Of a stretch of DNA of 64,000 nucleotides, positions 9,155 to 25,501 are shown one piece after another (position 1 is the stretch's first letter; every line of letters begins with the position of its first letter). The DNA is from Alphaproteobacteria bacterium (GTDB lineage Bacteria > Pseudomonadota > Alphaproteobacteria > UBA828). The notes beneath the pieces were generated by a model. That model was not told the DNA's origin. It made no database searches and saw only the letters and a program-made list of their open reading frames with translations. Location of the stretch: NCBI GenBank assembly GCA_965214705.1, contig OZ243972.1:2528001-2592000 (forward strand). The letters run 5' to 3'. Both the position numbers and the translations under genes were made by a program.

Positions 9155-9166
9155 CCCGCGCTGTCC

Positions 9167-10222: not shown

Positions 10223-10299
10223 GGCCGCGCCCGCCTAGCCCGTGACGCCGCGCCCGGCGGACGCGTCACGCGCCGCCGAAGCCACGGGCCGGTACGAAA

Positions 10300-10332
10300 G
10301 CCGGGGCGGCGGGGGGAACCCGCCGCCCCGGC
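10300..10332 (-). terminator. GC-rich 14-bp stem-loop after the binding-protein gene (attenuator or mRNA stabiliser)
   Basis: GCCGGGGCGGCGGG / CCCGCCGCCCCGGC with 5-nt loop; followed by TTT on the minus strand. Confidence 0.6.
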
Positions 10333-10382
10333 CGGGCGCCTTCATCGGCGCTCGTCCCGAGGGACGCTCTACAGCAGCCCCA

Positions 10383-12050
10383 TCAGTCGGCGATGCTCAT
10401 TTCCGCCACGTGGTAGTACTGAGTTGTGTACCAGCGGAAGTTGCTGACCTTCCGCGAGAGGCCGACGGCGAAGTAGTGCTCGCCGATCCAGCCCAGCGGG
10501 GCCTGGTCGTGGATATGCTCCTGGATCCCGGCGTGCGCCGCAATGCGCGCCTCCGCATCCACCACGCCCTGGCCGTCCTGCAGCACCTGGTCGACCAGCG
10601 GGTCGGAGAAGTTGTGGTAGTTGACCAGCGCGTTGGTCGGCCACACCAGCTTCAGCGCGTAGTTGATGTCGGGCTGAATCGGCATGTCCGTCCACAGCGC
10701 GAGCGAGCCCTGCTTGCTCATCACGTTATCCGAGTTCGCAGCGGTCGGCAGCTTCCTCAGCGAGAGATTGATGCCGGCCTTCTTGAAGTCGCTCTGCAGC
10801 AGGACGCCGATCGATTCCATCGCCGCCACGGCCGCGTCGAACGAGAGCTCGGCGTCGAAGCCGTCGGGATAACCTGCCTCGGCGAGCAACGCCTTGGCCT
10901 TCTCCGGGTTGAAGTCGTACTTCATGTGCTGCTCGTAGCCCGGATAGGTGCTCGGCATCACGCCTTGCCACGCGTTCATCATGCCGTGGTAGATGTCGCG
11001 AATGATCGCCTCCTGGTTGATGAGGTGATTCATCGCCTGGCGCACCTTCACGTTGTCGTAGGGCGGCAGCGTGTTGTTGATCATCATCCACATGGATTGG
11101 TTGCCGCGTACCGCAACGCCGCGCGCATTCGGATCGTCAGCGAGCGCCACGATCTCGTCCGGCGACAGTCCCTCGGCCATGTGCACCTTGCCCTGCTTGA
11201 GCAGCGCGACGCGGTTGGCCGATTCCGGCACCACCAGATAGATGATGCGCTTGATCTCCGGCGCACCGCGCCAGTAGTTCTCGTTGGCCTCCATGACGAC
11301 CCGCTTGCCGGCGGTCCATTCGATCACCCGGTAGCCGCCGAAGCCGCCGCCGTTGGTCGCGACCCACTTGTCGCCCCAGGGGTCCTCCTCCGTGGCGTGG
11401 CTCATGATCTCGGTGCTATCGAGCCAGGCGTTGTAGTAGTTGGTCAGCCCCTTGCAGGCGAGCGGCATGGGCCGGGACGAAGTGAGCTCGACGGTATAAT
11501 CGTCGATCTTCGCGTAGCCGCCGCTCTCCGGCGGGTCGATGGTCTGACCCGGCATGCTGAGCAGGAACTCGAGGAAGTTGTTGATCGCCTGCGTGGCCTT
11601 GCCGCGCTCGATCCGCCAGAGCACGTCGTCGGCGGTGAACTCGTTGCCCCAGGGCGAGATCACGCCCTTGCGCAGGTGATAGACGGCGCGCAGGCCATCC
11701 GGCTCCATCTCGCACTTCTCGATGATGCCCGGCACCAGAGTCTTCTGGCCCATGTAGTCGGGATACATGAAGCCCGGAATAGTGGAGGGGTCCCAGGCGT
11801 CGCCGGTCGAGAAGGGGAAGTCGATCGACTCCCAATTCATCCCGTCCTCGAACACCTGCGCGCCCATGCTCCAGGTCTGCGGGCTCACATGCTTGTCGAG
11901 GTCGATGCCCTGCGGCAGGGCGCCGATGGCGATCACCATCGTGTCCTGATTTGCGGCGGCCGGCTTCGGCGGCGCCGCTGCCACCAGCGCGGCGAGCGCT
12001 GCCGTGGCCGCGACCGCGAGGCCGCGTCTTGTGATGTCACCCAAGGTCAT
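10383..12050 (-). CDS. Family 5 ABC substrate-binding protein, probable Tat signal
   Basis: ITRRGL twin-arginine N-terminus; LRKGV..FTADDV, ANENYWRG, KVRQAMNH, KAKALLAEAGY. Confidence 0.92.
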   Translation of the reverse strand: MTLGDITRRGLAVAATAALAALVAAAPPKPAAANQDTMVIAIGALPQGIDLDKHVSPQTWSMGAQVFEDGMNWESIDFPFSTGDAWDPSTIPGFMYPDYMGQKTLVPGIIEKCEMEPDGLRAVYHLRKGVISPWGNEFTADDVLWRIERGKATQAINNFLEFLLSMPGQTIDPPESGGYAKIDDYTVELTSSRPMPLACKGLTNYYNAWLDSTEIMSHATEEDPWGDKWVATNGGGFGGYRVIEWTAGKRVVMEANENYWRGAPEIKRIIYLVVPESANRVALLKQGKVHMAEGLSPDEIVALADDPNARGVAVRGNQSMWMMINNTLPPYDNVKVRQAMNHLINQEAIIRDIYHGMMNAWQGVMPSTYPGYEQHMKYDFNPEKAKALLAEAGYPDGFDAELSFDAAVAAMESIGVLLQSDFKKAGINLSLRKLPTAANSDNVMSKQGSLALWTDMPIQPDINYALKLVWPTNALVNYHNFSDPLVDQVLQDGQGVVDAEARIAAHAGIQEHIHDQAPLGWIGEHYFAVGLSRKVSNFRWYTTQYYHVAEMSIAD

Positions 12051-12218
12051 GTCGTCTCTCCTCAGTCTCCCTCTGCGCCGCAGGGTCGGCCCGCGCGCGC
12101 GGGTGCGCGCGTCGCGGCACGCGGCCGGATATTAGAAGAAAATTGAAACAAGCGCTCGTTCAAATTTTGCCGAGAGCGCATTCCGACGCCAGGCCCGCGA
12201 ATCGGGCGCAGCGATGCG

Positions 12219-13199
12219 CTACGCAGCACCGCGCGCGTCCGCCATCGAGGCCGCCACGTCGTCCCAGCGCCGGCAGGCGGAGTAGTGCACCGCCTCCACC
12301 TCCACCAGCGGCGGCACCGCGTCGCGGCAAGCGTCTTCGCGGATCGGGCAGCGGCCGTAGAGCGGGCACTCGGGCTTCGGGTTGATCGCCGTCGGAATCT
12401 CGCCCTCGATCACGTAGGGGTCGGGCCGGCGGTGCGGATCGGGGAACAGCACGGCGGAGAGCAGGGCGCGGCTATAAGGATGGCGCTGGCTCTCCATGAT
12501 GATCTCGGTCGGCGCGTGCTCGACGATGTGGCCGAGATACATGATCGCGATGCGATGGCTGATCTTCGCGACCGAGGTCAGGTCGTGGGAGATGAAGATG
12601 TAGGCGGTCTCGGTCTCGTTCTGGATCGCCTTGAGCAGATCCAGGATCTCGGCCCGCGCCGAGGGGTCGAGCATGGAGGTCGGCTCGTCGAGCATCACGA
12701 ACTCGGGCTCCGTGACTAGCGCGCGCGCGATCCCCACACGCTGTTGCTCGCTCGCGGTGAGGTCGGCCGGGTAGTAGGTGAAGACCTCGCTGCCGAGGCC
12801 CACGCGCTCCAGCATCGCGGCCACGCGGGGTCTGCGCTCGGCCCGCCCCACGCCGTGCAGCGCCAGCGGCTCGTCCACGGTTTGATAAACGGTGAGTCTG
12901 GGATTGAGGGAGCCGAAGGGGTCCTGGAAGACGAGCTGCATTCGCGCCCTGAGCGCCCTGAGCCCCGCCGGGTCGAGCTCGCTGATCTCCTGGTCGCCGA
13001 GGGCGATGCGCCCCTCGGTAGGCTCGATCAGGCGGAGTACGCAGCGGCCGACCGTGGTCTTGCCCGAGCCACTCTCGCCGACCAGGCCCAGCGTCTCGCC
13101 ACGCTCCAGCGTGAACGAGACGTTGTTGACCGCGATCAGGTCCTCGTCCTTGCCGACCGTGAATATCTTGGTCAGGTTTTCGACCGTGAGCAGCGCCAC
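12219..13199 (-). CDS. Peptide ABC ATPase (DppF/OppF-like)
   Basis: [38 protein letters not shown]-terminal Cys motif; signature divergent (LTASEQQR). Confidence 0.92.
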
Positions 13200-13343
13200 C
13201 GCCCCTCGTCCCCCTGCGCGGCGCGCCGCTCTCGCCGCTCGGCCGTCTCCCTATCGTAACCACCGGGTGCGGGCAAGGGCGGCGCTGCGCTCGCTCCGGT
13301 TCGCCCTTTCAAGAACCGGGTGGTTCCGGCTAAGACGGCGCCC

Positions 13344-14123
13344 ATGACCGAGCAACCCTTCACTGCCGACGAGATGATGACCGTCGCCGCGGCGCGGCTC
13401 ATCGATAACGGCACGGTGTGCTTCGTGGGCATCGGCCTGCCGAGCGCCGCTGCCAACCTCGCCCGCGCCACCCACGCGCCGGACGCCGTGCTGATCTACG
13501 AGTCCGGCACCGTCGGCGCGAAGCCCGCCGTGCTTCCGCTCTCCATCGGCGACAACGAGCTCGCCGAGACCGCCGACTTCGTGGTCTCCACCGCGGAGAT
13601 CTTTCGTTACTGGCTGCAGGGTGGGCGCATCACGGTGGGCTTCCTCGGCGCAGCGCAGATCGACCGCTTCGGCAACATCAACACGACCGTGATCGGCGAT
13701 TACGCGCAGCCCAGGACCCGGCTGCCCGGCGCCGGCGGCGCACCGGAGATCGCCGGGCTCGCCGGCGAGGTCTTCATCATCATGCGCCAGTCGAAGCGCG
13801 GCTTCGTGGACAAGGTGGAGTTCGTGACCTCGGCCGGACACCTGACCGGCGGCGACTGGCGCGAGCGCTCGGGCCTCCCCGGCCGCGGGCCCAGCACGGT
13901 CATCACCGACCTCGGCGTGCTGGAACCCCATCCCGAGAGCCGCGAGCTGGTCCTCACCCACACCCATCCGGGTGTCGCACTCGACGATGTGGTGGCCGCC
14001 ACCGGCTGGCCGCTTGCGATCGCCGACAATCTCGCCGAGACCCCGGCACCGACGGCGGACGAGCTGGGCGCCCTGCGCGGGCTGCACGAGCGCACCGCAG
14101 CCGCGCGTGCGCTCGCAGGTTAA
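13344..14123 (+). CDS. CoA-transferase beta subunit (glutaconate / 3-oxoadipate CatJ-like)
   Basis: [44 protein letters not shown]. Confidence 0.88.
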
Positions 14124-14137
14124 TCCGGCGGGGAAGA

Positions 14138-14803
14138 CTACGGAGCGAGCAGCGGGAGCGCCCGCAGCGCGGCGCAGGCGGCGCCATAGCCGTTGTCGAT
14201 GTTGACCACCATCACCCCCGGCGCACAGGAGGCGAGCATGGCCGCCATCGCGGTGGTTCCGCCCTTGGCGACGCCGTAGCCGGTGGACGTCGGCACCGCG
14301 ATCACCATGCCCGGCACCAGCCCGCCCACCACCGAGGGCAACGCGGCGTCCATGCCGGCAACCACGATGACGATGGGGAAGGCGCGGATCTCGTCGATCC
14401 GGTCCATCAGCCGCCAGAGGCCCGCGACCCCCACGTCGCCGATTTCTGCCGAAGAATGGCCGTGATAGGCGAGGGTGCGAGCGGCCTCATGGCATACCGG
14501 CTGGTCCGAGGTCCCGGCGGAGACGATCGCGACCCTCGGCGCCCCCGCAGGTGCGGCGACCGTGCCGAACACCCCGGTGCGCGACAGCGCCTCGTAGTCG
14601 ATGCGCTCAGCCAGCGCTGCAGGCAGGGCGTCGCGCTGGGCCGCGTCGAGGCGGGTCAGCAGCAGGCTCCGCTCCGCCTCCTCCGCACGCGCGAGGACGT
14701 CCGCCAGCTGCGCCGGCGTCTTGCCCGCACAGAGCACGGCCTCCTCGATGCCGATGCGCGCGCGGCGTTCCAGATCGAGGGTGATGGCGGTGGGCGTGCT
14801 CAC
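14138..14803 (-). CDS. larB: Nickel-pincer cofactor biosynthesis protein LarB
   Basis: LDLERRARIGIEEAVLCAGKT, AGTSD, DVGVAGLWRL, VAGMDAALPSVVGG, AVPTSTGYG, VVNIDNGYGAA. Confidence 0.93.
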   Translation of the reverse strand: MSTPTAITLDLERRARIGIEEAVLCAGKTPAQLADVLARAEEAERSLLLTRLDAAQRDALPAALAERIDYEALSRTGVFGTVAAPAGAPRVAIVSAGTSDQPVCHEAARTLAYHGHSSAEIGDVGVAGLWRLMDRIDEIRAFPIVIVVAGMDAALPSVVGGLVPGMVIAVPTSTGYGVAKGGTTAMAAMLASCAPGVMVVNIDNGYGAACAALRALPLLAP

Positions 14804-15630
14804 GCCGGGTGCGCGGGCCTCAGGAAGGCGCTGCCCACCCGGTAGGGCGCGAAGCTGACCGGCCGGGTCTCGTCGCCCGTGGCGAACATGCCGGCGACGG
14901 TGTCGCCGAGGGCGGCGCGGCGGCTCTCGCTCAGCGCATCGAGGGTCGGCGCGTCGAGCTCGATCACGATGCCGGCCTTGCGCCTGCGGCAGCGCACGGT
15001 CTCGGGCTCCAGCCGCCGCAGCTGGCGCGCAAGGTAACGCTCGGCGGCGTGGATCGAGGCGAGGTCGTCGGCCTCCACGCGCAGCCCGGTCTCGATGCGG
15101 CTGGAAAGGCAGGGCGCCGCCGGCAACCGCGACAGGTCGTCGAAGCCCAGATCCGCCGCGATGGCGCGGACCCCTGCCTTGTCGATGCCGGCCTCGACGA
15201 AGGGATGGCGCACGCCGTGTTCCTCGGCGGCCCTGAGCCCCGGCCGCCAGTCGCCCAGATCGTCCAGGTTCGTGCCGGAGAGCAGCGTGGCGTCGGTCCG
15301 CGCGGCGAGCGCGCCGTAGAGGTTTGTCTTGCAGTAGAAGCAGCGGTTGGCCGGGTTTGCGCGGTAGGCGGGGTCGTCGAACTCGCCCGCATCAAGGACC
15401 GTGAGCCGCCACCCCTCACGCGCGGCGAAGGCGCGCACCCGCTCGGTCGCCTCCGGCGGTACCGCCGGCGAGATGGCATGGAACATCGCGCTCTCCGCGC
15501 CCAAGCGGCGCCCGGCGAGCAGCGCCAGCGTCATGCTATCCACCCCGCCGCTGACCGCCACGGCCGCGCGGCCGATGCCGTCGAGCACAGCGCCCACCGC
15601 GTCGACACCGGGGAGCATCGGCTCAGCCAT
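14800..15630 (-). CDS. larE: LarE-like ATP-dependent sulfur insertase (PP-loop, CxxC...C type)
   Basis: SGGVDS, NRCFYCK, GTNLDDLGDWRPG, PCLSSRI; overlaps larB and larC. Confidence 0.88.
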   Translation of the reverse strand: MAEPMLPGVDAVGAVLDGIGRAAVAVSGGVDSMTLALLAGRRLGAESAMFHAISPAVPPEATERVRAFAAREGWRLTVLDAGEFDDPAYRANPANRCFYCKTNLYGALAARTDATLLSGTNLDDLGDWRPGLRAAEEHGVRHPFVEAGIDKAGVRAIAADLGFDDLSRLPAAPCLSSRIETGLRVEADDLASIHAAERYLARQLRRLEPETVRCRRRKAGIVIELDAPTLDALSESRRAALGDTVAGMFATGDETRPVSFAPYRVGSAFLRPAHPA

Positions 15631-16891
15631 TCTTGCCCCGCCCGAGCGCCGCCGCCTCCGCGCTGCGGCGCCGCACCTCGCGCACCGTGTGGCCCGCGCT
15701 GCCCGCGAGGTCGTCGAGCTCCGCCTTGGCGGTCACGGTGCCCGCCGGCCGGCGCGCGCGCTTCACCCGGACCGTGCCGAGCGCATCGGCATGGGTCGCC
15801 GTGTCCCGCGCAAGCGCGCTGCGGAAAACTTTGGACCAGCGCACGCCGAGCGTGGTGGTCTCGTCGAAGACCGCATCGAGCGCGCCGTCGAGCGCGTCTT
15901 CCTCGGCAAGCACCTGAATCGCAGCTACCAGGCGGCCCTTCTTGCCGTAGGCCGGCCACTGTAGGACATCGAGAATGCCCGGCCGCGCCCGCAGGCGGTC
16001 GAGGCCGAGCGCCAGGTCCTCGGGCGTCTGGTCGTCGATCTCGAAGCGCAGCACCGCGACCTGTTCCTGCTCGGCCACCGGCGCGATGGGTGCGAACTCC
16101 AGGACGCGCAACACGTTGCTGAGGCCCGGCAGGGTCCGGCTGCCGAAGCCGGTGCCGACACCCGCCAGCGTTTCCGGCTCCCCGGACGCCACCTGGGCCG
16201 GCTCGAGATGCTTCAGAATTGCCGCGCCGGTGGGCGTCACCCGCTCGCCCTCGATACCGTCGTCGTAGGTGGCGAGCCCCTGCAGAAGATGGACCACCGC
16301 GGGCGCCGGCACCGGCAGCAGGCCGTGGGCGCAGCGCACCCGGCCCGAGCCGAGAGGAATGGCGCCCACCGACCAGCGCGCCGGGCCCAACGCCTCGATC
16401 AAGTGCGCGGCGGCGACGATATCGACAGTCGAGTCCCAGGCACCTACCTCGTGGAAGGTGACTTCCGCCGGGTCCATCCCATGCACCGCGCCCTCGGCCT
16501 CGGCAAGCAGCGTGAAGATCGCGAGCGCTCGCTTGCGCATGGCAGGTTTGATGCGGGCGGCCTTCAGCCGCGCGCGCACATCCGCCAGCCGCACGTGGCC
16601 ATGGCCCTCGTCTTCGGGCGCCGTCACCGTGAAGCGCATGCCGGTGAGCGCTGCGTCCCCGCACGGGTCGATCGCGATCTCCACCGAGGGAGGCGGCTGG
16701 AGCGCAACGAGCGCACGCCACAATCCGTCGGCCAACTCCGGCCGGGCGTCGAGCAGCGCCGCGGCGAACATGTCGCCGGCGATGCCACCCACCGGATCCA
16801 GGTGAAAGCGGGGCAGGCGGGCGGGAGCGGCCGAGCCCTCCGATACGTCCGTATCCGCGTCCGTCGCTGCGGGGGGCGGAGCGTCGTCCAT
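15623..16891 (-). CDS. larC: LarC nickel insertase
   Basis: GIAGDMF, FHEVGAWDS, CAHGLLPVPAPA, VTPTGAAIL, IDDQTPE, TTLGVR; start at ATG 16891, the ORF-track extension overlaps the upstream gene. Confidence 0.9.
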   Translation of the reverse strand: MDDAPPPAATDADTDVSEGSAAPARLPRFHLDPVGGIAGDMFAAALLDARPELADGLWRALVALQPPPSVEIAIDPCGDAALTGMRFTVTAPEDEGHGHVRLADVRARLKAARIKPAMRKRALAIFTLLAEAEGAVHGMDPAEVTFHEVGAWDSTVDIVAAAHLIEALGPARWSVGAIPLGSGRVRCAHGLLPVPAPAVVHLLQGLATYDDGIEGERVTPTGAAILKHLEPAQVASGEPETLAGVGTGFGSRTLPGLSNVLRVLEFAPIAPVAEQEQVAVLRFEIDDQTPEDLALGLDRLRARPGILDVLQWPAYGKKGRLVAAIQVLAEEDALDGALDAVFDETTTLGVRWSKVFRSALARDTATHADALGTVRVKRARRPAGTVTAKAELDDLAGSAGHTVREVRRRSAEAAALGRGKNG

Positions 16892-16898
16892 GCGAGCG

Positions 16899-17690
16899 CT
16901 ACTCTCCCTTGAAGGCCGGCTTGCGTTTTTCGGCGAAGGAGGCCACGCCTTCCGCGAAGTCGGCCGATGAGCGCAGCCTACCATAGGCCTCGCCTTCGAG
17001 GGCGATGGCCACGCTGAGCGGCGCGTCCTCCGCCGCGTTGAGGAGCTTCTTCGCGGTGCGCTGGGCGAGCGGCGAGAAGGCCTTGAGCTCGTCCACCAGG
17101 GCATCGGTCGCGTCCGCAAGCCCGTCTTCGGGCACGCAGTCGAGCGCGATGCCCCAGGCGTGCGCCTCCGGGCCCGGCAGCCGCCTTGCCCGCATCACCA
17201 GGTCCTTGGTGCGTCCGATACCGATCATCCGCGCGAGCCGGGCCGAGCCGCCGGAGCCCGGAATCATGCCGATGCGCTGCTCCGGCAGGCCGAGCAGCGC
17301 GTTCTCGGTGACGATGCGAAAGTCGCAGGCGAGCGAAAGCTCGAAGGCGACGCCGAAGCAGTAGCCGTGGATCGCCGCGATCACCGGCTGGCAGCAACGC
17401 TCGGGCGCAGCCACGTTGCGCGCCAGCACCGCGAGCTGCTCCGGCGTGCGCGTCATGAAGCCCGGAATGTCGCCGCCGCTGGAGAAGTGCTTGCCCCGCG
17501 CCCGCAGCACGATCACGCGCACGCCTTCATCGGCGTCGAGCGCGGCGAAGACGGCGGCAAGCTGGTCCCGCTGCGGCATGCTCACGACGTTGAGCGGCGG
17601 GCGGTCGAGCACGATGTCGGCGCGCGCCGCCGCGCGGTCCACCTCCACGCGGAAGCCGTCGAGATCGTCGTAAGGACCACCGGTCGTCAC
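16899..17690 (-). CDS. hmfE: Enoyl-CoA hydratase-fold protein, HmfE-like (2-oxoglutaroyl-CoA hydrolase)
   Basis: LDGFRVE..RADIVLDRPPLNVVSMPQRDQL, FSSGGDI, LACDFRI, LPEQRIGMIPGSGGS; GTGA overlap with ligase stop; last gene of an A-B-C-D-E order. Confidence 0.78.
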   Translation of the reverse strand: MTTGGPYDDLDGFRVEVDRAAARADIVLDRPPLNVVSMPQRDQLAAVFAALDADEGVRVIVLRARGKHFSSGGDIPGFMTRTPEQLAVLARNVAAPERCCQPVIAAIHGYCFGVAFELSLACDFRIVTENALLGLPEQRIGMIPGSGGSARLARMIGIGRTKDLVMRARRLPGPEAHAWGIALDCVPEDGLADATDALVDELKAFSPLAQRTAKKLLNAAEDAPLSVAIALEGEAYGRLRSSADFAEGVASFAEKRKPAFKGE

Positions 17691-19231
17691 GCGCTTCTCC
17701 TGACCTCGGACTCTTCGTCTTCCTCGTACTCGCCCGCGATCAGCAGGCGGCGCAGCACCTTGCCTACCGGCGACTTCGGGATCGCGCGAACGAAGACGTA
17801 CGCGCGCGGCCGCTTGAAATCGGCCAGTGTCGAAGCGCGGCAGTGGGCGTCCAATGCCTCGGCATCTACCGGGCCGCTCCGCACCACGAAGGCCGCGACC
17901 TGTTGCCCCCAGCGCTCGTTCGCGAGCCCCGCCACCGCTGCTTCCGCCACCGCCGGGTGGACCGAGAGCACGCTCTCGATCTCGGCGGGCAGCACGTTCT
18001 CGCCGCCGGTGATGATCATGTCGTCGACCCGGCCCGTCACGAAAAGATCGCCGTCGGCGTCGCAATAGCCGACATCGCCGGTGAAATACCAGCCTTGCTT
18101 CAGCGCGCGGGCGTCCGCATCCGGCCGCTGCCAGTAGCCCGCGAAGGCCTCCTCGCTCTCCAGGCTCGCGATCACCTCGCCTTCCACGCCCGCGCCGACG
18201 GTACGCTCGGGATCGTCCGTGCCGATCTCCACCACGCGGATGCGCTGGTTGATGCCGGCCTTGCCCGCCGAGCCCGGCTTGGCCGCCGCGTTCTGGTCGA
18301 TGGTGAAGGAGTAGATCTCCGACGAGCCGTAGTGGTTGACGAAGAGCTCGGGCCGGAAGGCGCTTTCGGCCCGACGCAGCAGTCCCTCGGCCATCGGAGC
18401 CCCGGCGAAACCCAATTTGCGCGCCGAGGAGACATCTGCGCTGGCGAACTCCGGGCTTTCCAGCAGGTCGTAGTAGAGCGTCGGCACCAGATAGAGGCAG
18501 GTTAGCCGCTCGGCCTCGATCAGCCGGAGCGCGCCGGCCGCATCAAAGCGGTGCTGGCAGACGAAGGCGCCACCCACCGGCGCCATCGCGAGCAGCGAGC
18601 GCACGCCCATGGTGTGGTAGAGCGGCATCACGCCCAGGGTGCGCTCGCCCGGGCGGTAGCAATTCTGCGCGATGTGGGCCAGCGCCGCCGCGCGCTCTGC
18701 GCGATGCGTGCGCGGCACGCCCTTGCCGCGCCCGGTGGTGCCGGAGGTGTAGAGCATGAGCGAGAGGTCGTTCTCGCTGGCATTAGGTGCGGACTCCGCC
18801 GGCGCCGTCAGCAGCTCGCCGAAATCGACCGTGCCTCCGGTCGCGTCGCCGGCCGCGATGCGGCGCAGTCGGGCCGAGCGGGTGGAACCCGCGACGGCAT
18901 CGACGGCGGACTCGTCGAAGGCCAGCGCTGCCGCGCCCGAATCCTCCAGAAAGTAATCCAGCTCGTCGGCGGTGCTCCGCCAGTTGAGCGGCACCACGAC
19001 AACGCCCGCAAGCTGGCAGGCCCAGTGCAGTGCCGCCATCTGCCACCGGTTCTGCATGATGACTGCGAGCCGGTCGCCGCGCCCGAGCCCCAGGCCGCCG
19101 AGGCCCGCGGCGAGGCGCGCGGCCGTATCGAGCCACGCGGCGTAATCGAAGCGCCGCGCGCCATCGACGACGGCGAGCGCACGCGGGTTCCGCTCCGCCG
19201 CCGCGATTAACGTGCGGCCCAGGTCGGTCAT
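17687..19231 (-). CDS. hmfD: Aryl-CoA ligase, HmfD-like (2-furoate-CoA ligase)
   Basis: YTSGTTGRGKG, MPLYH, YGSSE, TGD, GRVDDMIITGGENV, PKSPVGK; resembles 4-chlorobenzoate-CoA ligase; gene order. Confidence 0.78.
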   Translation of the reverse strand: MTDLGRTLIAAAERNPRALAVVDGARRFDYAAWLDTAARLAAGLGGLGLGRGDRLAVIMQNRWQMAALHWACQLAGVVVVPLNWRSTADELDYFLEDSGAAALAFDESAVDAVAGSTRSARLRRIAAGDATGGTVDFGELLTAPAESAPNASENDLSLMLYTSGTTGRGKGVPRTHRAERAAALAHIAQNCYRPGERTLGVMPLYHTMGVRSLLAMAPVGGAFVCQHRFDAAGALRLIEAERLTCLYLVPTLYYDLLESPEFASADVSSARKLGFAGAPMAEGLLRRAESAFRPELFVNHYGSSEIYSFTIDQNAAAKPGSAGKAGINQRIRVVEIGTDDPERTVGAGVEGEVIASLESEEAFAGYWQRPDADARALKQGWYFTGDVGYCDADGDLFVTGRVDDMIITGGENVLPAEIESVLSVHPAVAEAAVAGLANERWGQQVAAFVVRSGPVDAEALDAHCRASTLADFKRPRAYVFVRAIPKSPVGKVLRRLLIAGEYEEDEESEVRRSA

Positions 19232-19731
19232 GAGTCATTCCCGCGCTGCCGCGCCTCCGCAGCGTCGAGTGCGGCCGCGACGATCCCGGTATAGCCGGTG
19301 CAACGGCAGAGGTGGCCGCTGAGCAGCGCCCGGACTTCGCCTTCGTCGGGCGCCGGCCGGCTTTCGAGCCAGGCGTCGAGGGACATCAGGATGCCGGCGG
19401 TGCAGAAGCCGCATTGCAGCGCGTGGTGGCGGCGGAACGCCGCCTGCAGGTCGTTCAGCTCACCGTTGGGGGCGAGACCCTCCACCGTGTCCACGCGCCG
19501 GCCGTCGGCCTGCACCGCGAGCGTCAGGCAGGCGCGCACCGGGGCGCCGTCGAGGCGCACGGTGCAGGCGCCGCAGACCCCGTGCTCGCAGCCGACATGG
19601 GTGCCGGTGGCGCCCAGCTCGTGGCGCAGAAAGTCGCTCAGCAGCATGCGCGGCTCGGCCCAGCCGCTCGCCTCGCAGCCATTGAGGGTGAGCCCGACCC
19701 GATGGCGGCTCTCCGCGTCGAGCCGCTTCAT
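19228..19731 (-). CDS. hmfC: Molybdo-hydroxylase 2Fe-2S subunit, HmfC-like
   Basis: GCEHGVCGAC, QCGFC, LCRCTGY; start at ATG 19731 overlapping the upstream stop. Confidence 0.82.
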   Translation of the reverse strand: MKRLDAESRHRVGLTLNGCEASGWAEPRMLLSDFLRHELGATGTHVGCEHGVCGACTVRLDGAPVRACLTLAVQADGRRVDTVEGLAPNGELNDLQAAFRRHHALQCGFCTAGILMSLDAWLESRPAPDEGEVRALLSGHLCRCTGYTGIVAAALDAAEARQRGNDS

Positions 19732-20555
19732 GGCCGCGCCTCCAACGCCGCCGTGACCGTCTGTTTGCCCAGGCGGCGTACCAGCTCGCGCCGGTAGCGG
19801 GCGCTGGCGTGAACATCGTCGGCGGCGTCCAGAGACCAGGCCAGCGCGTTGAGCGCGTCGTCGAGCGCGCTGCCGGCGAGGAGCGGCCAGTCCTGGACGA
19901 CCGGTTGCTCGGCCACGCCACCGACGCCGATCCTGATCCCGTTCGCCCGCGCGATGACGGCAATGGCGACGATAGCGAAGTCCCCGTGCCGGCGCGCAAA
20001 CTCGGTGAAGGCATAGCCAGCGCTCGGCTCGGCGGCGGGGAAGCGCACCGCCGACACCATCTCGTCCTCTCGGCACGCGGTCGACAGCATCCCGGTCTGG
20101 AACTCGGAGGCCGACAGCGTCCGCGTTCCCGCGCGCGAGCGCAGCACAACTTCGCCGCCCAGCGTCGCGAGGCAGAGCGGCAGCTCCGCGCTCGGGTCGG
20201 CGAAGGCGATGGAGCCGCACACCGTGCCCCGGCTCCGGGTCTGAACGTGGCCGAGCAGGGGCAGCGCCTGGGCCAGCAGGGGCGTGCGCTCGGCAAGCGT
20301 GGGCCAGGTCTCCAGGGCGGCCTGGGTCGCTGCCGCCCCGACCTCGATGGCCTCGCCGCCGTCCTCGATCCCGGCGCGGCCCACCAGCCGGGAGATGTCG
20401 ATGAGCACTCCCGGCTCCACCAGCCGCATGTTGAGCATCGGCATCAGGGTTTGGCCACCCGCGAGCAGCCGCGCGTCGTCCCCTGCCTCGGCGAGGGCCT
20501 CCAGGGTCTCCTCCTCGTCGTCGGGACGCAGATAATCGAAGGGCGCGGGCTTCAT
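19728..20555 (-). CDS. hmfB: Molybdo-hydroxylase FAD subunit, HmfB-like
   Basis: MKPAPFDY, LAGGQTL, RGTVCGS, ADPSAELP, RRHGDFA. Confidence 0.82.
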   Translation of the reverse strand: MKPAPFDYLRPDDEEETLEALAEAGDDARLLAGGQTLMPMLNMRLVEPGVLIDISRLVGRAGIEDGGEAIEVGAAATQAALETWPTLAERTPLLAQALPLLGHVQTRSRGTVCGSIAFADPSAELPLCLATLGGEVVLRSRAGTRTLSASEFQTGMLSTACREDEMVSAVRFPAAEPSAGYAFTEFARRHGDFAIVAIAVIARANGIRIGVGGVAEQPVVQDWPLLAGSALDDALNALAWSLDAADDVHASARYRRELVRRLGKQTVTAALEARP

Positions 20556-20645
20556 GGCGTCCCTATACCCGGATCAGGGGCGCGTTGGTATCATGGCGCG
20601 ATCCCCCGAGCCCGCCGGCAGGGCGGTATCCGCGAGGAGCGTGCC

Positions 20646-20849
20646 ATGAAATTGAAGGTGATCGTGCATGAAGCGGAAGAGGGGGGCTACTGGGCCGAGG
20701 TGCCCGCAATCCCCGGCTGTGCGACGCAAGGCGAGACCTTCGAGGAACTGCTGAGCAATCTCTACGAGGCGGTCGAAGGCTGCCTCTCCGTGGATGTCCG
20801 CGATATCCCCACCTCCGGCAGCGACAGAATCGTCGAGATCGCCGTGTGA
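20646..20849 (+). CDS. hicB: Short HicB-family antitoxin without DNA-binding domain
   Basis: MKLKVIVHEAEEGGYWAEVPAIPGCATQGETFEE; SD GAGGAG upstream. Confidence 0.9.
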   Translation: MKLKVIVHEAEEGGYWAEVPAIPGCATQGETFEELLSNLYEAVEGCLSVDVRDIPTSGSDRIVEIAV

Positions 20850-21052
20850 AAACCGTCAGTGGGCGGCAGTTTTGTCGTGTGTTGGAGTTGCGGGGGTGGA
20901 AGATGATGCGCATCAGCGGAAGCCACCGCATCTACGCGAAAGCAGGGTCGGACGTCCGCATCTCGGTTCCTGTCCACGGCGCCAAGTCGCTCAAGCGTGG
21001 CTTGCAGAAGCATTTGATGAAGCTCGCCGATATCGATGAGTCTGAGCTGTAG
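20846..21052 (+). CDS. hicA: HicA-family mRNA interferase toxin
   Basis: LELRGW..RISGSHRIY...SVPVHG..LKRG; GTGA overlap with hicB. Confidence 0.9.
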   Translation: MKTVSGRQFCRVLELRGWKMMRISGSHRIYAKAGSDVRISVPVHGAKSLKRGLQKHLMKLADIDESEL

Positions 21053-21079
21053 TCCCCAGCGTCCAGTTGCGCCTCTCAC

Positions 21080-23482
21080 CTACGGCGCCAGCTTTTCCGG
21101 CCCGTGGATCAGGTCGCCGATCCGGGCGGGCGTGAGCGGCAGGTCGAGGCTCCCGACCCCCAGTGCGTCCGCCACGGCGTTGGCGAGGCAGACGGGTGTG
21201 GTCATGCAGTTGCCTTCGCCCACGCCCTTCGCTCCCAAAGGCGTCGCCGGTGTCGGGATGTCGCGGTGCAGGATGAGCGGATCGGGCACCTCGCAGGCGG
21301 TCGGCACCAGATAGTCGGCCAGCGTGCCGGAGAGGAAGCTTCCGTCCTCGGAATAGGCGAGCTCCTCGTAGAACGCGGCGCCCACGGCGTGGGCGAAGGC
21401 GCCCCGAATCTGGCCGTCCACCAGCGCCGGGTTGAGGCGCCGGCCGGTATCGTGGGTGGTGACGTAGCGGTCGATGGCGACGGCGCCGGTTGCGCGGTCC
21501 ACCTCCACCCCGCAGAAATCGAAGATGAAGCTATACGCCGCCGAGTTGTTGATCCGATCGTCGTCATCGGGTGGGGTGAGCTGGGGCGGCGTCCAGCGCG
21601 CGGTTTCGCGTAGCGCCGGCGGCACGCCCTCCGGCAGGCTGCCCGGCGACCAGTGGACGAGCGATGCCACCCGCCGGAAGTCGAGGTCGTTCTCGGGATT
21701 GCCCATGGCGAAGACGCGCCCCTGCTCGAAGCGCACGTCCTCGGGCCGAGCGTTGAGCTGCTGGCTCGCGATCCGCGCGAGGCGTTCGCGCACCCGCACC
21801 GCTGCGAGGTGTGCGGCACCCGCGACCGCGCCCGAAAAGCGGCTCGAATAGTTGCCCGCGGCGATCGACCAGGCATCCCGCTGTGTGTCGTGCTCAAGCG
21901 CGACCGTAACTTGAGCCGGCGCGAGGCCCAACGCGTCGCCCACCACCTGCGCCAGCACCGTGCGGTGGCCCTGCCCCTGCGGGATCGAATCGGCGGTCAC
22001 GGTGACGGCGCCGAGGGGGTCCACCGCAACCGTGGCGTGGCTGACGGCGCCGTCCTTCGGCCCCGCCTTGCGCCGCTCTTCGGCGCTGAGCACGGTTGTG
22101 ATGTAGCCCATGTTGGAGATGCTGGACTCCACCGCGGCGGCGAAGCCGATGCCATAGAGCCGGCCCTCCGCCCGCGCCGCGTCGCGCTTGGCGCGCAACG
22201 CGTCGAGCGCGCCTTCCGCCACGCCGTGATCCACGGTGGCGGGAAAGTCGCCGGCATCGAGCACCGCGCCGGCGGCGGCGCGATAGGGCATGGCGTCGGC
22301 CGGTACCAGATTGCGCCTCATGACCTCCAGCGGGTCGAGGTCGAGGGTTGCGGCCACCCGTTGCATCAGCCGCTCCAGTGCGTAGTAGAGCTGCGGCCCC
22401 CCAAAACCCCGGTTGAGCCCCGTGGGCGTCTTGTTGGTCACGACCACGCGGTTGTTCACCGCGAGATGGGGGATGCAGTAGGGGCCGGTGAGGTTGCCGT
22501 GGTTGCGGTAGAGCGTCGCGGGCTCGGGCGCACGCAGGTAGGCGCCGCAGTCCTCCAGTTGGTCGAGGCGAAGCGCGGTTATTCTCCCGTCTGCCTCCAC
22601 CGCCGCTTCGATCCGTGTCATCCGGTTGGTCGCCGATGTCGCCGCCAGCAGGTGCTCCAGCCGGTCCTCGATCCACTTGACCGGGCGCGCGGCCTTCCGC
22701 GCCGCGAGCGCCATCGCGACGATGAGCGGGAAGACCGCCTGCTTGATGCCGAAGCTGCCGCCTGAATCCGGCACCGAGCGCAGCCGGAGCCGCGGCCCCG
22801 GCACCTTGAGCGCCCGCGCCATGACCGGGTGCAGCGTGAGCGGCCCCTGGAAGTGGGAGAGCACGTCGTAGGCGTCGTCACCAGGGTCGTACTCAGCGAT
22901 CAGACCAAGGCATTCGATGGGGGTGCAGGAGTTGCGCGGATAGCGCACCGTGGTCGCGACCATGTGCGCCGCCGTGTCGAACGCCGCCTCCGGCTCGCCG
23001 TAGCGGAACGACCGATCGCTGACGAGGTTGCTGCCGACCTTCTCGTGCAGCACCGGCGCATCGCTGTTGAGCGTGGCCTCGGGATCGACGACGGCGTCAA
23101 GCGGCTCGTAGCGCACGTCAATCAACGCGAGCGCGTCCTCCGCCCGGTAGCGGTCCTCCGCCACGACGATGGCGACCGGCTCGCCGGCGTAGCGCACCCG
23201 GTCGGTGGCGATGCACCAGTGCTCCATGGGCTGGCGCACGCTGACGATGAAGGGCGTGGACCAGGCGCGCGCGTCTTCGCCGGTGACCAGGGCATGGACG
23301 CCCGGCAGCGCCTCTGCTGCCGCCGCGTCGATACCGGCAAGGCGAGCATGAGCATGGGGCGAGCGCAGGATGGCGGCATGTCCGGTGCCGGGCGCCACCG
23401 GCATGTCGTCGATGTAGCGGCCGCGGCCCATGAGGAGCGCCGCATCCTCGACGCGTTCCAGCGCCGTGCCGAGCGTGCTCAT
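21080..23482 (-). CDS. hmfA: Molybdopterin large subunit, HmfA-like (2-furoyl-CoA dehydrogenase)
   Basis: RVEDAALLMGRG, LRSPHAHA, GGSFGIK, NRGFGG, QGQGH, AAGNYSSR, GAKGVGEG; leads the A-B-C-D-E order. Confidence 0.8.
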   Translation of the reverse strand: MSTLGTALERVEDAALLMGRGRYIDDMPVAPGTGHAAILRSPHAHARLAGIDAAAAEALPGVHALVTGEDARAWSTPFIVSVRQPMEHWCIATDRVRYAGEPVAIVVAEDRYRAEDALALIDVRYEPLDAVVDPEATLNSDAPVLHEKVGSNLVSDRSFRYGEPEAAFDTAAHMVATTVRYPRNSCTPIECLGLIAEYDPGDDAYDVLSHFQGPLTLHPVMARALKVPGPRLRLRSVPDSGGSFGIKQAVFPLIVAMALAARKAARPVKWIEDRLEHLLAATSATNRMTRIEAAVEADGRITALRLDQLEDCGAYLRAPEPATLYRNHGNLTGPYCIPHLAVNNRVVVTNKTPTGLNRGFGGPQLYYALERLMQRVAATLDLDPLEVMRRNLVPADAMPYRAAAGAVLDAGDFPATVDHGVAEGALDALRAKRDAARAEGRLYGIGFAAAVESSISNMGYITTVLSAEERRKAGPKDGAVSHATVAVDPLGAVTVTADSIPQGQGHRTVLAQVVGDALGLAPAQVTVALEHDTQRDAWSIAAGNYSSRFSGAVAGAAHLAAVRVRERLARIASQQLNARPEDVRFEQGRVFAMGNPENDLDFRRVASLVHWSPGSLPEGVPPALRETARWTPPQLTPPDDDDRINNSAAYSFIFDFCGVEVDRATGAVAIDRYVTTHDTGRRLNPALVDGQIRGAFAHAVGAAFYEELAYSEDGSFLSGTLADYLVPTACEVPDPLILHRDIPTPATPLGAKGVGEGNCMTTPVCLANAVADALGVGSLDLPLTPARIGDLIHGPEKLAP

Positions 23483-23571
23483 GCGTTGCCGAGCCGTGCC
23501 TGCGCTGCCATCGAACACCAGTGGTCCAATGCACCAACCGACCACCCCGGTTCACGACGGCCCGGACAACG

Positions 23572-23679
23572 CCCACCTCCCCCTGTCCCCCTCCCCCAAA
23601 GGCGGAGGGGGGACGCAGACGGCGCCGCCCGTTCTCCCTCTCCGCCCCTGGGGGCGGAGAGGGCCGGGGTGAGGTGGGG
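23572..23679. repeat. Inverted pair of GC-rich REP-like palindromes
   Basis: CCCACCTCCCCCTGTCCCCCTCCCCCAAAGGCGGAGGGGGGAC (23572-23614) and inverted CCCTCTCCGCCCCTGGGGGCGGAGAGGGCCGGGGTGAGGTGGGG (23636-23679), each with an internal hairpin. Confidence 0.75.
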
Positions 23680-23740
23680 GTTTGTCAGACTGCTCTGCAT
23701 GCGAGACAGGGACGATGCGCCAACCAGGTACGATCCCGTT

Positions 23741-24967
23741 CTAGTTGTCTGACCAGCCGGGAATCAGGCGGTTGGACGGCAGCGTCTCGTCAGCGGCCTT
23801 GTGCGCGGTCTCGACGCCGCCGACCGGCAGCCCTCCCGGCTCCAGCAGGCCGATCTGCACCAGCACCGAGGCCTGATCCCAATAAATATGCTCGTGGTGG
23901 AGCCTGTCGCCGCGGAAGGCGACGATCGCCACCAGCGGCACGCTGACCTTCTTGCCGGTAGGGGCCACGCCGGGAAGCATCCAGTCGATCTCCTCGTTGT
24001 GGGTGAAGCTGAAGATCAGCTCGTCCACCACCCGGTCGGCGCCCACGGTACGCGAAAGCGGGGTCAGCGTCGTGTCCTTGGGCATCTTCGGGATGAAGTG
24101 CTCGGTATAGAAGCGGCTCAGCGCGTCGGCGCCGGTGCCCCCGGTCATGGTCGGGATGTGGTTGACGTAGGGCTCGGCCACCATGGTGGCCATGGTCTTG
24201 GCGGTGTCCCGCGTCGTGAACTCGTAGTCGAGGTGACGCTCCCACAGCCTCTCGAGGTCGTAGCCAGGGCCGATTGCACCCCGCAGCAGCGCGATGGTGC
24301 GCGAATGGGCGATCATGGCGGACGGCCGGTGATAAACCTCGCTGCGGTCGTGGTTGTAGAAGGCGTGATCGACGCCGGGATAGACGTGGATCCGCACCTC
24401 CGGCCGGTCCGCGAAATGGGCCGTGACGGCGTCCACCGCCGACTGCGGCACGAACGCATCCTCGCCCGCGAAGTGCATGAGCATCGGGCAGCCGATGCCG
24501 CCTGACTCGTCCAGCGCCTCCTCGATGCCGACACCGTAGAACGAGACCGCCGCATCGATATCGTGCCGTGTGGCGGTGAGGTAGGCGAGCTTGCCACCAA
24601 GGCAGAAGCCCATGGCAGCCACTTGGCCCGTGCACTCCGGCCGCGCCCGCAACGCCTCCACCGCGGCGCCGATATCCGCGACGCCTTGGTCCACGTCGAA
24701 GCGCTGGTAGAACGCGAAGGCCTTGGCAAAGTCGGCCTCGCTGTAGCCGAGGTCCACGCCGGGCTCCATGCGCCAGAAGAGATCGGGCACGAGGCAGACA
24801 TAGCCTTCCTCGGCGTAAAGGTCGGCGATCGCCCGCAGGCTCGCGTTGACCCCGAAAATTTCCTGTTCGATCAGGAGGCCCGGCCCGCTGCCCGCCTCCG
24901 GAACCGTCAGATAGCCCCTGAACGCGCCGCCACCAGCGACGGGAATATCGATCATTGCACCTGCCAT
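23741..24967 (-). CDS. Dienelactone hydrolase fused to a SnoaL/NTF2-like ester-cyclase domain
   Basis: QEIFGVN, PDLFWR, GFCLGG (Cys nucleophile), YPGVDHAF; then WERHLDYEF, PYVNHIPT, VVDE, HEHIYWDQASVL. Confidence 0.88.
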   Translation of the reverse strand: MAGAMIDIPVAGGGAFRGYLTVPEAGSGPGLLIEQEIFGVNASLRAIADLYAEEGYVCLVPDLFWRMEPGVDLGYSEADFAKAFAFYQRFDVDQGVADIGAAVEALRARPECTGQVAAMGFCLGGKLAYLTATRHDIDAAVSFYGVGIEEALDESGGIGCPMLMHFAGEDAFVPQSAVDAVTAHFADRPEVRIHVYPGVDHAFYNHDRSEVYHRPSAMIAHSRTIALLRGAIGPGYDLERLWERHLDYEFTTRDTAKTMATMVAEPYVNHIPTMTGGTGADALSRFYTEHFIPKMPKDTTLTPLSRTVGADRVVDELIFSFTHNEEIDWMLPGVAPTGKKVSVPLVAIVAFRGDRLHHEHIYWDQASVLVQIGLLEPGGLPVGGVETAHKAADETLPSNRLIPGWSDN

Positions 24968-25501
24968 GAGAGGCTCTCCGCTCCCTTTGCACGGTCCGTG
25001 TCGGCCCATTCCATTCTGCGTCCGCTCCGCCTTTGCCGCAACGCGCGGGACAGCACACCGGCGCTCGGACAATTCTCTGTCAAATCAATGCCATTCGGGC
25101 ATAAGGGGTGCTTATGCCCTGCATGAGAATTCGGTATTGGACCGGATCAAGGCATCCAGGCACTGTCGACCGCGTGGCTGAGAGCCGTCGTCGAGAGCGG
25201 CCCGGTCACAGGGAGCGGAGCAGGAAGGCATCTCGTAGTCTGCGCCCCAGTACAGGGGGGCAGGGCGAGCGGAGGAGACGACAGAGCGATCCGTCATAGC
25301 CCGCGAAGCGAGGCATCCGAGCGCTACGGGATCGCATGTCGGCTCATCCGGTTCCGAGAGACATCGAGCTCCACGCGTAGACGAACACGAGGGACCGGGC
25401 CCAGGACAGAACGCGGGCCCAGCGAGGGGGGACGGCTGCCTCCAGAGCACGGAGGCGGTCGTCCCTGTTTCTGCGGGCCTTCGATGCTCCTGGCCGTGGC
25501 C

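Follow-up and report, generated by a model that had tools for sequence, protein, structure and literature searches.

The window, by which we mean the whole stretch of 64,000 nucleotides that was analyzed, is C1:2528001-2592000 of a 7.9-Mb genome in three contigs (G000), an assembly of the metagenome-assembled genome (MAG) type from an uncultured alphaproteobacterium. On its minus strand, at positions 14138 to 25072, nine genes lie in series, such that a gene for a fusion of a dienelactone hydrolase (DLH) with a SnoaL-like domain is followed by hmfABCDE, the gene set for furoate-type catabolism, and then by larC-larE-larB, whose products belong to the families that make NPN, a cofactor that is a nickel-pincer nucleotide. 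The fusion gene (23741 to 25072; Pfam DLH, 154 bits, and SnoaL_2/SnoaL, ~32 bits) begins the series. It is followed by hmfA (21080 to 23482), encoding the 800-residue molybdenum-binding large subunit of a hydroxylase of the 2-furoyl-CoA dehydrogenase type, with MoCoBD_1/2 and hammerhead domains. Beyond a noncoding gap of 524 bp (20556 to 21079) come hmfB for the FAD-binding subunit (19728 to 20555; FAD_binding_5 and CO_deh_flav_C), hmfC for the 2Fe-2S subunit (19228 to 19731; Fer2_2/Fer2), hmfD for an AMP-binding enzyme of the 2-furoate-CoA ligase type (17687 to 19231; AMP-binding), and hmfE for a crotonase-fold enzyme of the 2-oxoglutaroyl-CoA hydrolase type (16899 to 17690; ECH_1). The series ends with larC (15623 to 16891), encoding a nickel insertase in which LarC1 and LarC2 are fused, larE (14800 to 15630), encoding a sulfur insertase of the CXXC-C ([4Fe-4S]) type, and larB (14138 to 14803), encoding a nicotinic acid adenine dinucleotide (NaAD) carboxylase/hydrolase.

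With start codons placed from the translations, the spacing is +524 nt between hmfA and hmfB, -4 nt at each of the hmfB-hmfC, hmfC-hmfD, and hmfD-hmfE junctions, +7 nt between hmfE and larC, -8 nt between larC and larE, and -4 nt between larE and larB. Thus, the initial annotation, which had read an hmfA-to-hmfE series followed by larC, larE, and larB on one strand, with genes overlapping or less than 10 bp apart from the FAD subunit to larB, is borne out both by Pfam and NCBIfam and by junctions of -8 to +7 nt. The lar assignments are clear. LarC scores 311.8 bits against PF01969 and is above the cutoffs of TIGR00299 and NF052512 as well as those for LarC1 (181.6 bits; cutoff, 90) and LarC2 (102.8 bits; cutoff, 50), and the equivalog cutoffs are passed by LarE (TIGR00268, 229.9 bits against 150) and LarB (NF033503, 250.4 bits against 175). 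Two peculiarities that the initial annotation had flagged, a LarC almost without a His-rich stretch and a LarE of the CxxC...C type, are both seen in the translations, where GHGH is the sole His-rich stretch of LarC and LarE carries an SGGVDS PP-loop, CFYC, and PCLSSR. We regard both as ordinary; the CXXC-C type is described in PMC9283937 as the commonest type of LarE.

To assess the identity of the hmf genes, we used as references two clusters found by tblastn of the large subunit against plasmids, namely, those of Dinoroseobacter shibae DFL12 (pDSHI01) and Cupriavidus pinatubonensis HN-2 (p2). D. shibae DFL12 is named among furfural degraders in PMC3223595, which gives its HmfA as 54% identical to that of Cupriavidus basilensis, and PMC8091172 reports growth on furoate for C. 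pinatubonensis JMP134, a different strain from the HN-2 compared here. The HN-2 cluster has five genes, and that of D. shibae also has UbiX/UbiD (HmfG/F-type) genes, an aldehyde dehydrogenase gene, and regulators. All ten reference proteins found the window genes as their best matches in the window's genome and formed reciprocal best hits at 50 to 73% identity. Identities to the two references were 61% (D. shibae) and 64% (C. pinatubonensis) for HmfA (next paralogue in the genome, at most 36%), 50 and 54% for HmfB (at most 42%), 67 and 73% for HmfC (at most 60%), 60 and 62% for HmfD (at most 34%), and 62 and 68% for HmfE (at most 33%). The automatic JGI name of homologues 66 to 79% identical to the window HmfA is "2-furoyl-CoA dehydrogenase large subunit." With reciprocal best hits for all five proteins and an HmfA tree (below) that agrees, these comparisons indicate that the window carries a genuine hmfABCDE operon. 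It shares with the HMF14 type of C. basilensis, compared here through the two reference clusters, five genes in A-B-C-D-E order on one strand. Unlike the reference clusters, it has an HmfA without a CoxG domain, the 524-bp gap, the DLH-SnoaL gene upstream, and a translationally coupled larC-larE-larB downstream.

Above the cutoffs, larB, larC, and larE each occur in the genome as a single copy, and all three copies are in this operon. The initial annotation had recognized no LarA-like gene in the window and had treated the operon as one with no larA. A genome search with Lar_N upheld the former statement, giving zero matches within the window, but the latter fails at the scale of the genome, in which Lar_N matches three sites. 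A conventional larA, the presence of which had been named, together with a lack of conserved hmf-lar adjacency, as counting against a nickel-pincer role in the pathway, is found on contig C3 (C3:1855523-1856818; Lar_N, 192 bits, plus LarA_C). The second site (C1:777075-778490; Lar_N, 112.9 bits) encodes an atypical, divergent LarA homologue of 471 residues, here called LarAh, on the same contig as the window and 1.75 Mb away. The third is a weak Lar_N/DUF362-like protein (C3:846056; 27.5 bits). LarAh is bracketed by DDE_Tnp_1 and IS66 transposases (G000:C1:773392-784263, L091) and is paired divergently with an OYE/FadH-type Oxidored_FMN+Pyr_redox_2 gene, a pairing kept at 89 to 93% identity in relatives from the same clade. 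The canonical LarA has an unusual context of its own (G000:C3:1850039-1858759, L092), with glutamate-synthase-like GATase, Glu_synthase/GXGXG, and Fer4_20/Pyr_redox_2 neighbors, and it is also adjoined by a tungsten-type aldehyde:ferredoxin oxidoreductase.

By sequence, the best solved relative of LarAh is the malate racemase Mar2 (110 bits); lactate racemases come next (~80 bits), and the published single-histidine LarA subfamily scores just 46.5 and 42.6 bits. An AlphaFold2 model of LarAh (pLDDT, 77; pTM, 0.82; lowest confidence in the active-site loops) matched LarA structures over both domains in Foldseek, with a TMq of up to 0.77 (2yjg). There were 19 matches at an E value of ≤0.001, and all of the 14 listed were of the LarA family. 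An ESM Atlas look-up also placed the protein in the LarA superfamily, and LarAh is thus predicted to have the LarA fold.

We then examined the active site in an alignment of 17 LarAh orthologues with canonical LarA, using residue roles as given in PMC12611868 and in the header of Dataset S2 of PMC7583248 and numbering as in LarA. The NPN anchors are invariant, with Arg75, Lys184, and His200 corresponding to R93, K205, and H221 of LarAh; Lys184 is the thioamide tether of NPN, and His200 is a nickel ligand (PMC12611868). The position of His108 is occupied by Val in an invariant Gly-Lys-Val context (GKVF instead of GxHR), an equivalence found in HMMER alignments to 5huq, 9eid, and 6d6z and in a MAFFT alignment. 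The His174 site has an invariant Asn-His pair, of which three HMMER alignments put the Asn and MAFFT puts the His at the site, in a loop (residues 198 to 202) where the model is poorly confident. Asn stands opposite Asp72, and the residue just before it is an Asp. The invariant 17-residue motif FAPTDHLFFHTGWGCMS puts Phe, His, and Trp at the positions of Tyr294, Gln295, and Lys298; Gln295 and Lys298, with Tyr294, are substrate-carboxylate residues according to PMC7583248. LarAh, which represents a rare subfamily with 69 to 80% identity across phyla, lacks half of the catalytic and substrate-binding set of the racemases. Since His108, Gln295, and Lys298 are all missing, LarAh is unlikely to be an ordinary racemase. 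None of the 354 LarA homologues in Dataset S2 of PMC7583248 (~400 to 530 characters of each) showed the LarAh motifs, nor did one supplement of PMC11770544, and COG numbers for CoxL/M/S, CaiC, and CaiD were not found in Table S1 of PMC7583248.

Three known systems help to place these genes. The lar system of Lactiplantibacillus plantarum has the same three families for NPN biosynthesis and a client of the LarA superfamily. Here, in contrast, the client would not be adjacent to larBCE, LarC is one fused protein with nearly no His-rich stretch, LarE is of the CXXC-C [4Fe-4S] type rather than the sacrificial Cys176 type (PMC9283937), and LarAh lacks His108, Gln295, and Lys298. The single-catalytic-histidine LarA proteins of Blautia wexlerae and Streptococcus plurextorum (PDB 9q2u/9q3k/9q3j), as described in PMC12611868, share the LarA fold with LarAh, and both types keep the NPN-anchoring Lys and His and have lost one canonical catalytic His. 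They differ in which one, the single-His proteins keeping the His108 equivalent and having Asn for His174 whereas LarAh has Val for His108 and Asn-His at His174, and also in gene context, which is glycolytic in the former and Hmf-type in the latter. The third system, NphT, is an NPN-dependent hydride transferase of the aldo-keto reductase (AKR) fold that takes NPN chemistry beyond racemization; it was found by mining larBCE neighborhoods without larA, much as the initial annotation approached the present locus (PMC13524815). NphT has an unrelated TIM-barrel fold, whereas the candidate client here has the LarA fold.

To ask how widely the hmf-lar arrangement occurs, we scanned genome contigs with HmfE, obtaining 79 loci, of which 49 had an Hmf-like cluster (HmfE plus at least two partners), and lar genes lay near the cluster in 14 of these. 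The window's own clade, made up of sponge-type Alphaproteobacteria/Rhodospirillales MAGs, contributes 12 lar-bearing loci, in which the order is hmfE-larC-larE-larB. Five further loci, with other layouts, come from Actinomycetota, namely, a Thermoleophilia MAG, Streptomyces iranensis, and three Solirubrobacterales. Adjacency is thus kept within the clade and is met again in distant lineages. The Solirubrobacterales and S. iranensis have the order hmfD-A-E-B-C (with a CoxG fusion), followed directly by a gene for a LarA homologue (Pfam) of ~480 residues; in S. iranensis, a major facilitator superfamily (MFS) transporter gene stands between the two. larB-larC-larE lies divergently upstream or just downstream of these clusters and adjoins four of the five hmfD-A-E-B-C-larAh clusters (L052, which is S. 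iranensis DSM 41954, L057, L067, and L071); in the fifth, L066, the LarA homologue is present and lar genes were not found in its 16-kb contig. The actinobacterial LarA homologue is 64 to 70% identical to LarAh, compared with just 42 to 49% identity to the window's proteins for the Hmf proteins of the same loci.

When LarAh was used to scan metagenomes, 80 loci were obtained (69 to 97% identity). Taking as HmfA-like any protein at least 45% identical to the window HmfA, we considered the 18 loci in which 6 kb or more lies downstream of LarAh, and 13 of them had such a gene. The window's own clade (at least 95% identity) accounts for four of the five that did not, and without it the count is 13 of 14; in three of these four, LarAh lies divergently next to the OYE/FadH-type flavoprotein gene, and the fourth has no DNA on that side. 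Among loci with at least 3 kb downstream and less than 77% LarAh identity, 24 of 26 had HmfA-like or lar genes. The layouts vary: larAh may precede hmfABCDE directly or with larE-larC-larB on the opposite strand between them, a large regulator gene may stand between larAh and hmfA, or larAh may be divergent from the cluster. Upstream of LarAh there is usually a Liv-type ATP-binding cassette (ABC) importer (Peripla_BP_6, BPD_transp_2, and two ATPases) together with a PD40 beta-propeller protein, and further genes, which differ from locus to locus, include a PfkB kinase, a GlcDEF-like oxidase, LutBC, amidases, and a zinc-dependent alcohol dehydrogenase (Zn-ADH). A marine LarAh group (77 to 80% identity) adjoins a different enzyme of the xanthine dehydrogenase (XDH) family, 31 to 34% identical and with a split large subunit, in a locus (L100, 43-14287) that also encodes two CoA ligases, an acyl-CoA dehydrogenase, and a thiolase, along with an AraC regulator and a DsbA-like protein; this locus may represent a second LarAh-linked acyl-CoA pathway. 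The common theme of the LarAh loci is a molybdenum hydroxylase combined with CoA activation.

We placed the large subunits in a tree (FastTree; 68 rows; rooted on five paralogues from the window's genome), which left out rows with high-scoring segment pairs of less than 700 residues and 10 of the 15 own-genome paralogues. All Hmf-like large subunits formed one clade (support, 99) with three subclades. The first comprises Actinomycetota with the D-A-E-B-C order; the second is the metagenome LarAh-linked A-B-C-D-E type, the rows of which were chosen via LarAh so that their linkage is by construction; and the third is proteobacterial (support, 100) and takes in the window's clade (support, 100) along with the two reference clusters. 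Linkage to lar or LarAh is present in all three.

LarAh and hmf also co-occur when they are not neighbors. All five close relatives that carry the hmf-lar operon have LarAh elsewhere in the genome (93 to 99% identity), and of five proteobacterial genomes with hmf and no nearby lar genes, two, both Thalassobaculaceae, have LarAh (71%). Of 400 other evenly drawn genomes of the window's class, one (G063, of the same family) has LarAh, and there hmfD-hmfE-larC-larE-larB is contiguous and DLH-hmfABC lies 10 kb away. In a sister genus, larCEB is present in two genomes (67 to 68% nucleotide identity), both of which lack hmf and LarAh. We also sampled 401 evenly drawn actinobacterial genomes from the class of one carrier (LarAh, E ≤ 1e-100; HmfA-like, E ≤ 1e-150) and found LarAh in 13 and HmfA-like proteins in 14, with both in 13, LarAh alone in 0, and an HmfA-like protein alone in 1; two candidates were scored per genome, so that genomes with Hmf and no LarAh may be undercounted. 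The two genes were on one contig and within ~6 kb of each other in 11 of the 13. A LarAh match likewise came from one relative of the Solirubrobacterales-type loci. In a Thalassobaculaceae genome (G010), the hmf cluster lies 2 Mb from LarAh, whose surroundings (L188; G010:C3:435200-455199) include PhyH dioxygenase and Amidohydro_2 genes as well as CoxD-like AAA and CoxE-like VWA genes. The products of the last two we take to be maturation factors of enzymes of the XDH/carbon monoxide dehydrogenase (CODH) family.

Taken together, the observed gene identities, orthology, neighborhood pattern, and co-occurrence support a nickel-pincer link to furoate-type catabolism through a divergent client of the LarA family. 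The orthology of the Hmf proteins and the conserved, recurring hmf-lar link make a nickel-pincer role a reasonable inference, and because LarAh is orthologous to the LarA gene embedded in Hmf-type clusters, the likely client is a distant member of the LarA family. We give a probability of roughly 0.6 to the reading that hmfABCDE is coupled here to the supply of NPN for LarAh, the candidate client acting in the pathway. Of the options offered by the initial annotation, a distant NPN client thus survives, in the form of LarAh, whereas a non-LarA client fares poorly and there is no sign that the Lar enzymes have been repurposed.

In the scheme that we envisage, 2-furoate would be converted to furoyl-CoA, hydroxylated at C5 by the molybdenum enzyme, and ring opened, with release of 2-oxoglutarate. 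Since lar is coupled to hmf, NPN would be made when the pathway is expressed, so that the operon fusion would coregulate cofactor supply with the pathway, and LarAh, encoded 1.75 Mb away, would bind and use the NPN that larCEB provides. LarAh may catalyze a hidden-redox (hydride-shuttle) isomerization of a pathway intermediate or precursor rather than a racemization, an option that we favor because the protein keeps the cofactor anchors without the two-base racemase machinery or the carboxylate clamp. As a speculative example, 5-hydroxy-2-furoyl-CoA might give rise, off the path, to a 2-hydroxy/allylic tautomer or hydrolysis product of the 2-hydroxyglutaconyl type that LarAh would convert to the 2-oxoglutaryl form. 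That LarAh founds a new class of the LarA superfamily, an NPN-dependent, nonracemizing hydride-shuttle isomerase acting on an intermediate of XDH-family heteroaryl-CoA hydroxylases, is a bolder proposal that we consider rather unlikely.

Several observations weigh against a role for LarAh and NPN in this pathway. The core furoate pathway needs no nickel cofactor, since a 12-kb hmf cluster of Burkholderia phytofirmans suffices for growth of Pseudomonas putida KT2440 on furfural and 5-hydroxymethylfurfural (PMC5779731). In our own scan, 35 of the 49 loci with Hmf clusters had neither lar genes nor LarAh nearby, and LarAh was not found in three Gammaproteobacteria that have hmf without nearby lar genes or, with the window LarAh as the query, in four Pseudonocardiaceae genomes that have the D-A-E-B-C cluster. 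LarAh and hmf are not neighbors in the window's own clade, where LarAh sits beside the OYE/FadH-like gene, and the canonical LarA on C3 may equally be served by the lar genes. Outside the Proteobacteria, the LarAh-linked HmfA-like proteins are just 45 to 53% identical to the window HmfA, and their clusters may act on a different substrate. To these points must be added the possible undercount in the actinobacterial sample and the kinship among some of the metagenome loci and sampled genomes, which makes the counts overstate independence.

The principal competing explanation is that the adjacency is incidental and has no functional bearing on furoate catabolism. In this view, larCEB would already have been in place as a unit, serving other clients or the canonical LarA, a 2-hydroxyacid racemase, when a rearrangement specific to the clade happened to bring hmf upstream of it. 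The stand-alone larC-larE-larB of the sister genus, which has the same order and no hmf, fits such a history, as do the insertion sequence (IS)-rich DNA around LarAh, its distance from hmf in the clade, the canonical LarA, and the existence of validated hmf clusters without lar genes. The independent recurrences weaken this account, as do the data on co-occurrence. lar or LarAh linkage appears in three HmfA subclades and at least five gene orders, LarAh and HmfA-like proteins co-occur almost perfectly in the even actinobacterial sample, and in G063 hmfDE-larCEB has stayed contiguous though hmfABC has moved 10 kb off. On balance, we consider incidental adjacency unlikely. Somewhat better placed, though still doubtful, is the idea that the substrate of the LarAh-linked clusters, perhaps with this one among them, is not 2-furoate but another five-membered heteroaromatic 2-carboxylate or a compound derived from a sugar acid, with LarAh preparing a 2-hydroxy or sugar acid before CoA activation. 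It draws on the 45 to 53% identities mentioned above, on the marine group with its different XDH-family enzyme, CoA ligases, acyl-CoA dehydrogenase, and thiolase, and on neighbors of LarAh such as a PfkB sugar kinase (L163), a GlcDEF-like 2-hydroxyacid oxidase (L144), LutBC (L057), a D-2-hydroxyacid dehydrogenase with an AKR (L052), and, in other loci, amidases. Beyond the importer, lar, and hmf, however, no accessory neighbor is common to all LarAh loci, and the window's Hmf proteins are 50 to 73% identical to the clusters of furoate/furfural degraders, figures judged higher than the 54% HmfA identity given for two confirmed degraders in PMC3223595.

Far less probable than either is a client other than a LarA, in the shape of an operon protein (HmfE, the DLH-SnoaL protein, or a subunit of the molybdenum enzyme), or a repurposing of the Lar enzymes for another carboxylation or sulfur insertion. 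NPN clients other than LarA are in print, namely, the AKRs of the NphT family and, cited alongside them, an ornithine cyclodeaminase that depends on NPAD (PMC13524815), and the DLH-SnoaL gene is confined to the lar-fused clade. Yet HmfA to HmfE are orthologous to proteins that work in Lar-less hosts, LarB, LarC, and LarE have equivalog-level scores and the usual motifs, and no AKR (PF00248) was found among the operon genes and the scanned flanking genes, a scan that did not extend to the rest of the 64-kb window. A conserved LarA-family client explains the pattern without a new scaffold.

What is new here is the LarAh link between NPN genes and Hmf-type clusters. In the literature searched, we found no paper connecting nickel-pincer, LarA, or DUF2088 proteins with furoate, furoyl-CoA, molybdenum hydroxylases, or CoA ligases; a term search of PMC8091172 gave 0 occurrences of nickel and LarA, and neither is mentioned in the portions of PMC3223595 retrieved by pathway terms. 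larBCE is more widespread than characterized NPN clients, and LarAh offers a concrete candidate beyond the 2-hydroxyacid racemases. Its neighborhoods and co-occurrence tie it to a single defined pathway, of which the substrate class and the intermediates are known and which has carriers that can be cultured, S. iranensis among them, so that its chemistry is directly testable. Were LarAh the hydride-shuttle isomerase of the bolder proposal above, furoate-type catabolism would be nickel dependent in many Actinomycetota and sponge-associated Alphaproteobacteria. An unsuspected nickel requirement in the degradation of furans, or of related heteroaromatic acids, would be relevant to lignocellulose detoxification.

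Upstream of the operon core, the DLH-SnoaL gene lies 258 bp from hmfA on the same strand. It is kept in that position in the window's clade (76 to 93% identity) and in G063 (70%) and is missing from both reference clusters. The gene probably belongs to the operon unit, and because the review in PMC3223595 marks the lactone hydrolysis and tautomerization steps of the furoate pathway as unassigned, its product is a candidate lactone hydrolase/tautomerase for those steps.

HmfA itself has a peculiarity, in that the window protein lacks the C-terminal CoxG/SRPBCC domain found in the reference HmfA proteins (983 and 1,012 residues). Forms of ~800 residues without the domain also occur among the homologues that JGI names HmfA, suggesting that it may not be a defining feature of the pathway. 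A stand-alone CoxG-like open reading frame on C3 (G000:C3:1226658-1227092), 35 to 36% identical to the CoxG domains of the reference proteins, may substitute for it. The idea that loss of CoxG is the counterpart of LarAh presence was rejected, as Solirubrobacterales clusters have both; it is also countered by the Thalassobaculaceae, where the spacing implies a long HmfA and LarAh is elsewhere in the genome. We likewise rejected the 524-bp hmfA-hmfB gap as a decayed CoxG domain or a repeat, as it is present in a single copy in the genome (blastn) and tblastn with CoxG domains found no similarity in it. The gap is missing in four relatives (L014, L017, L019, and L023) and measures ~2.1 kb in another (L013), and it may carry an internal promoter.

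Two metatranscriptome libraries contained short contigs over larB, larC, hmfE, and hmfD, mostly less than 95% identical and so largely from relatives; none of these short contigs bridged hmfE and larC, and DNA carry-over is possible. No promoter-like site was found in positions 13900 to 25400, a scan that is uninformative in a genome of 70% GC, and the one terminator-like site in that interval is on the opposite strand. Convergent with larB is a CoA_trans (PF01144) gene at 13260 to 14123 on the plus strand, behind which lies an Opp/Dpp-type ABC transporter (7424 to 13250, minus strand). The start of the window shows signs of mobile DNA, with a phage-type integrase gene at 451 to 1404 on the minus strand and, at 3885 to 5072 on the plus strand, a gene for a protein with DruA-like and DDE_Tnp_1-associated domains.

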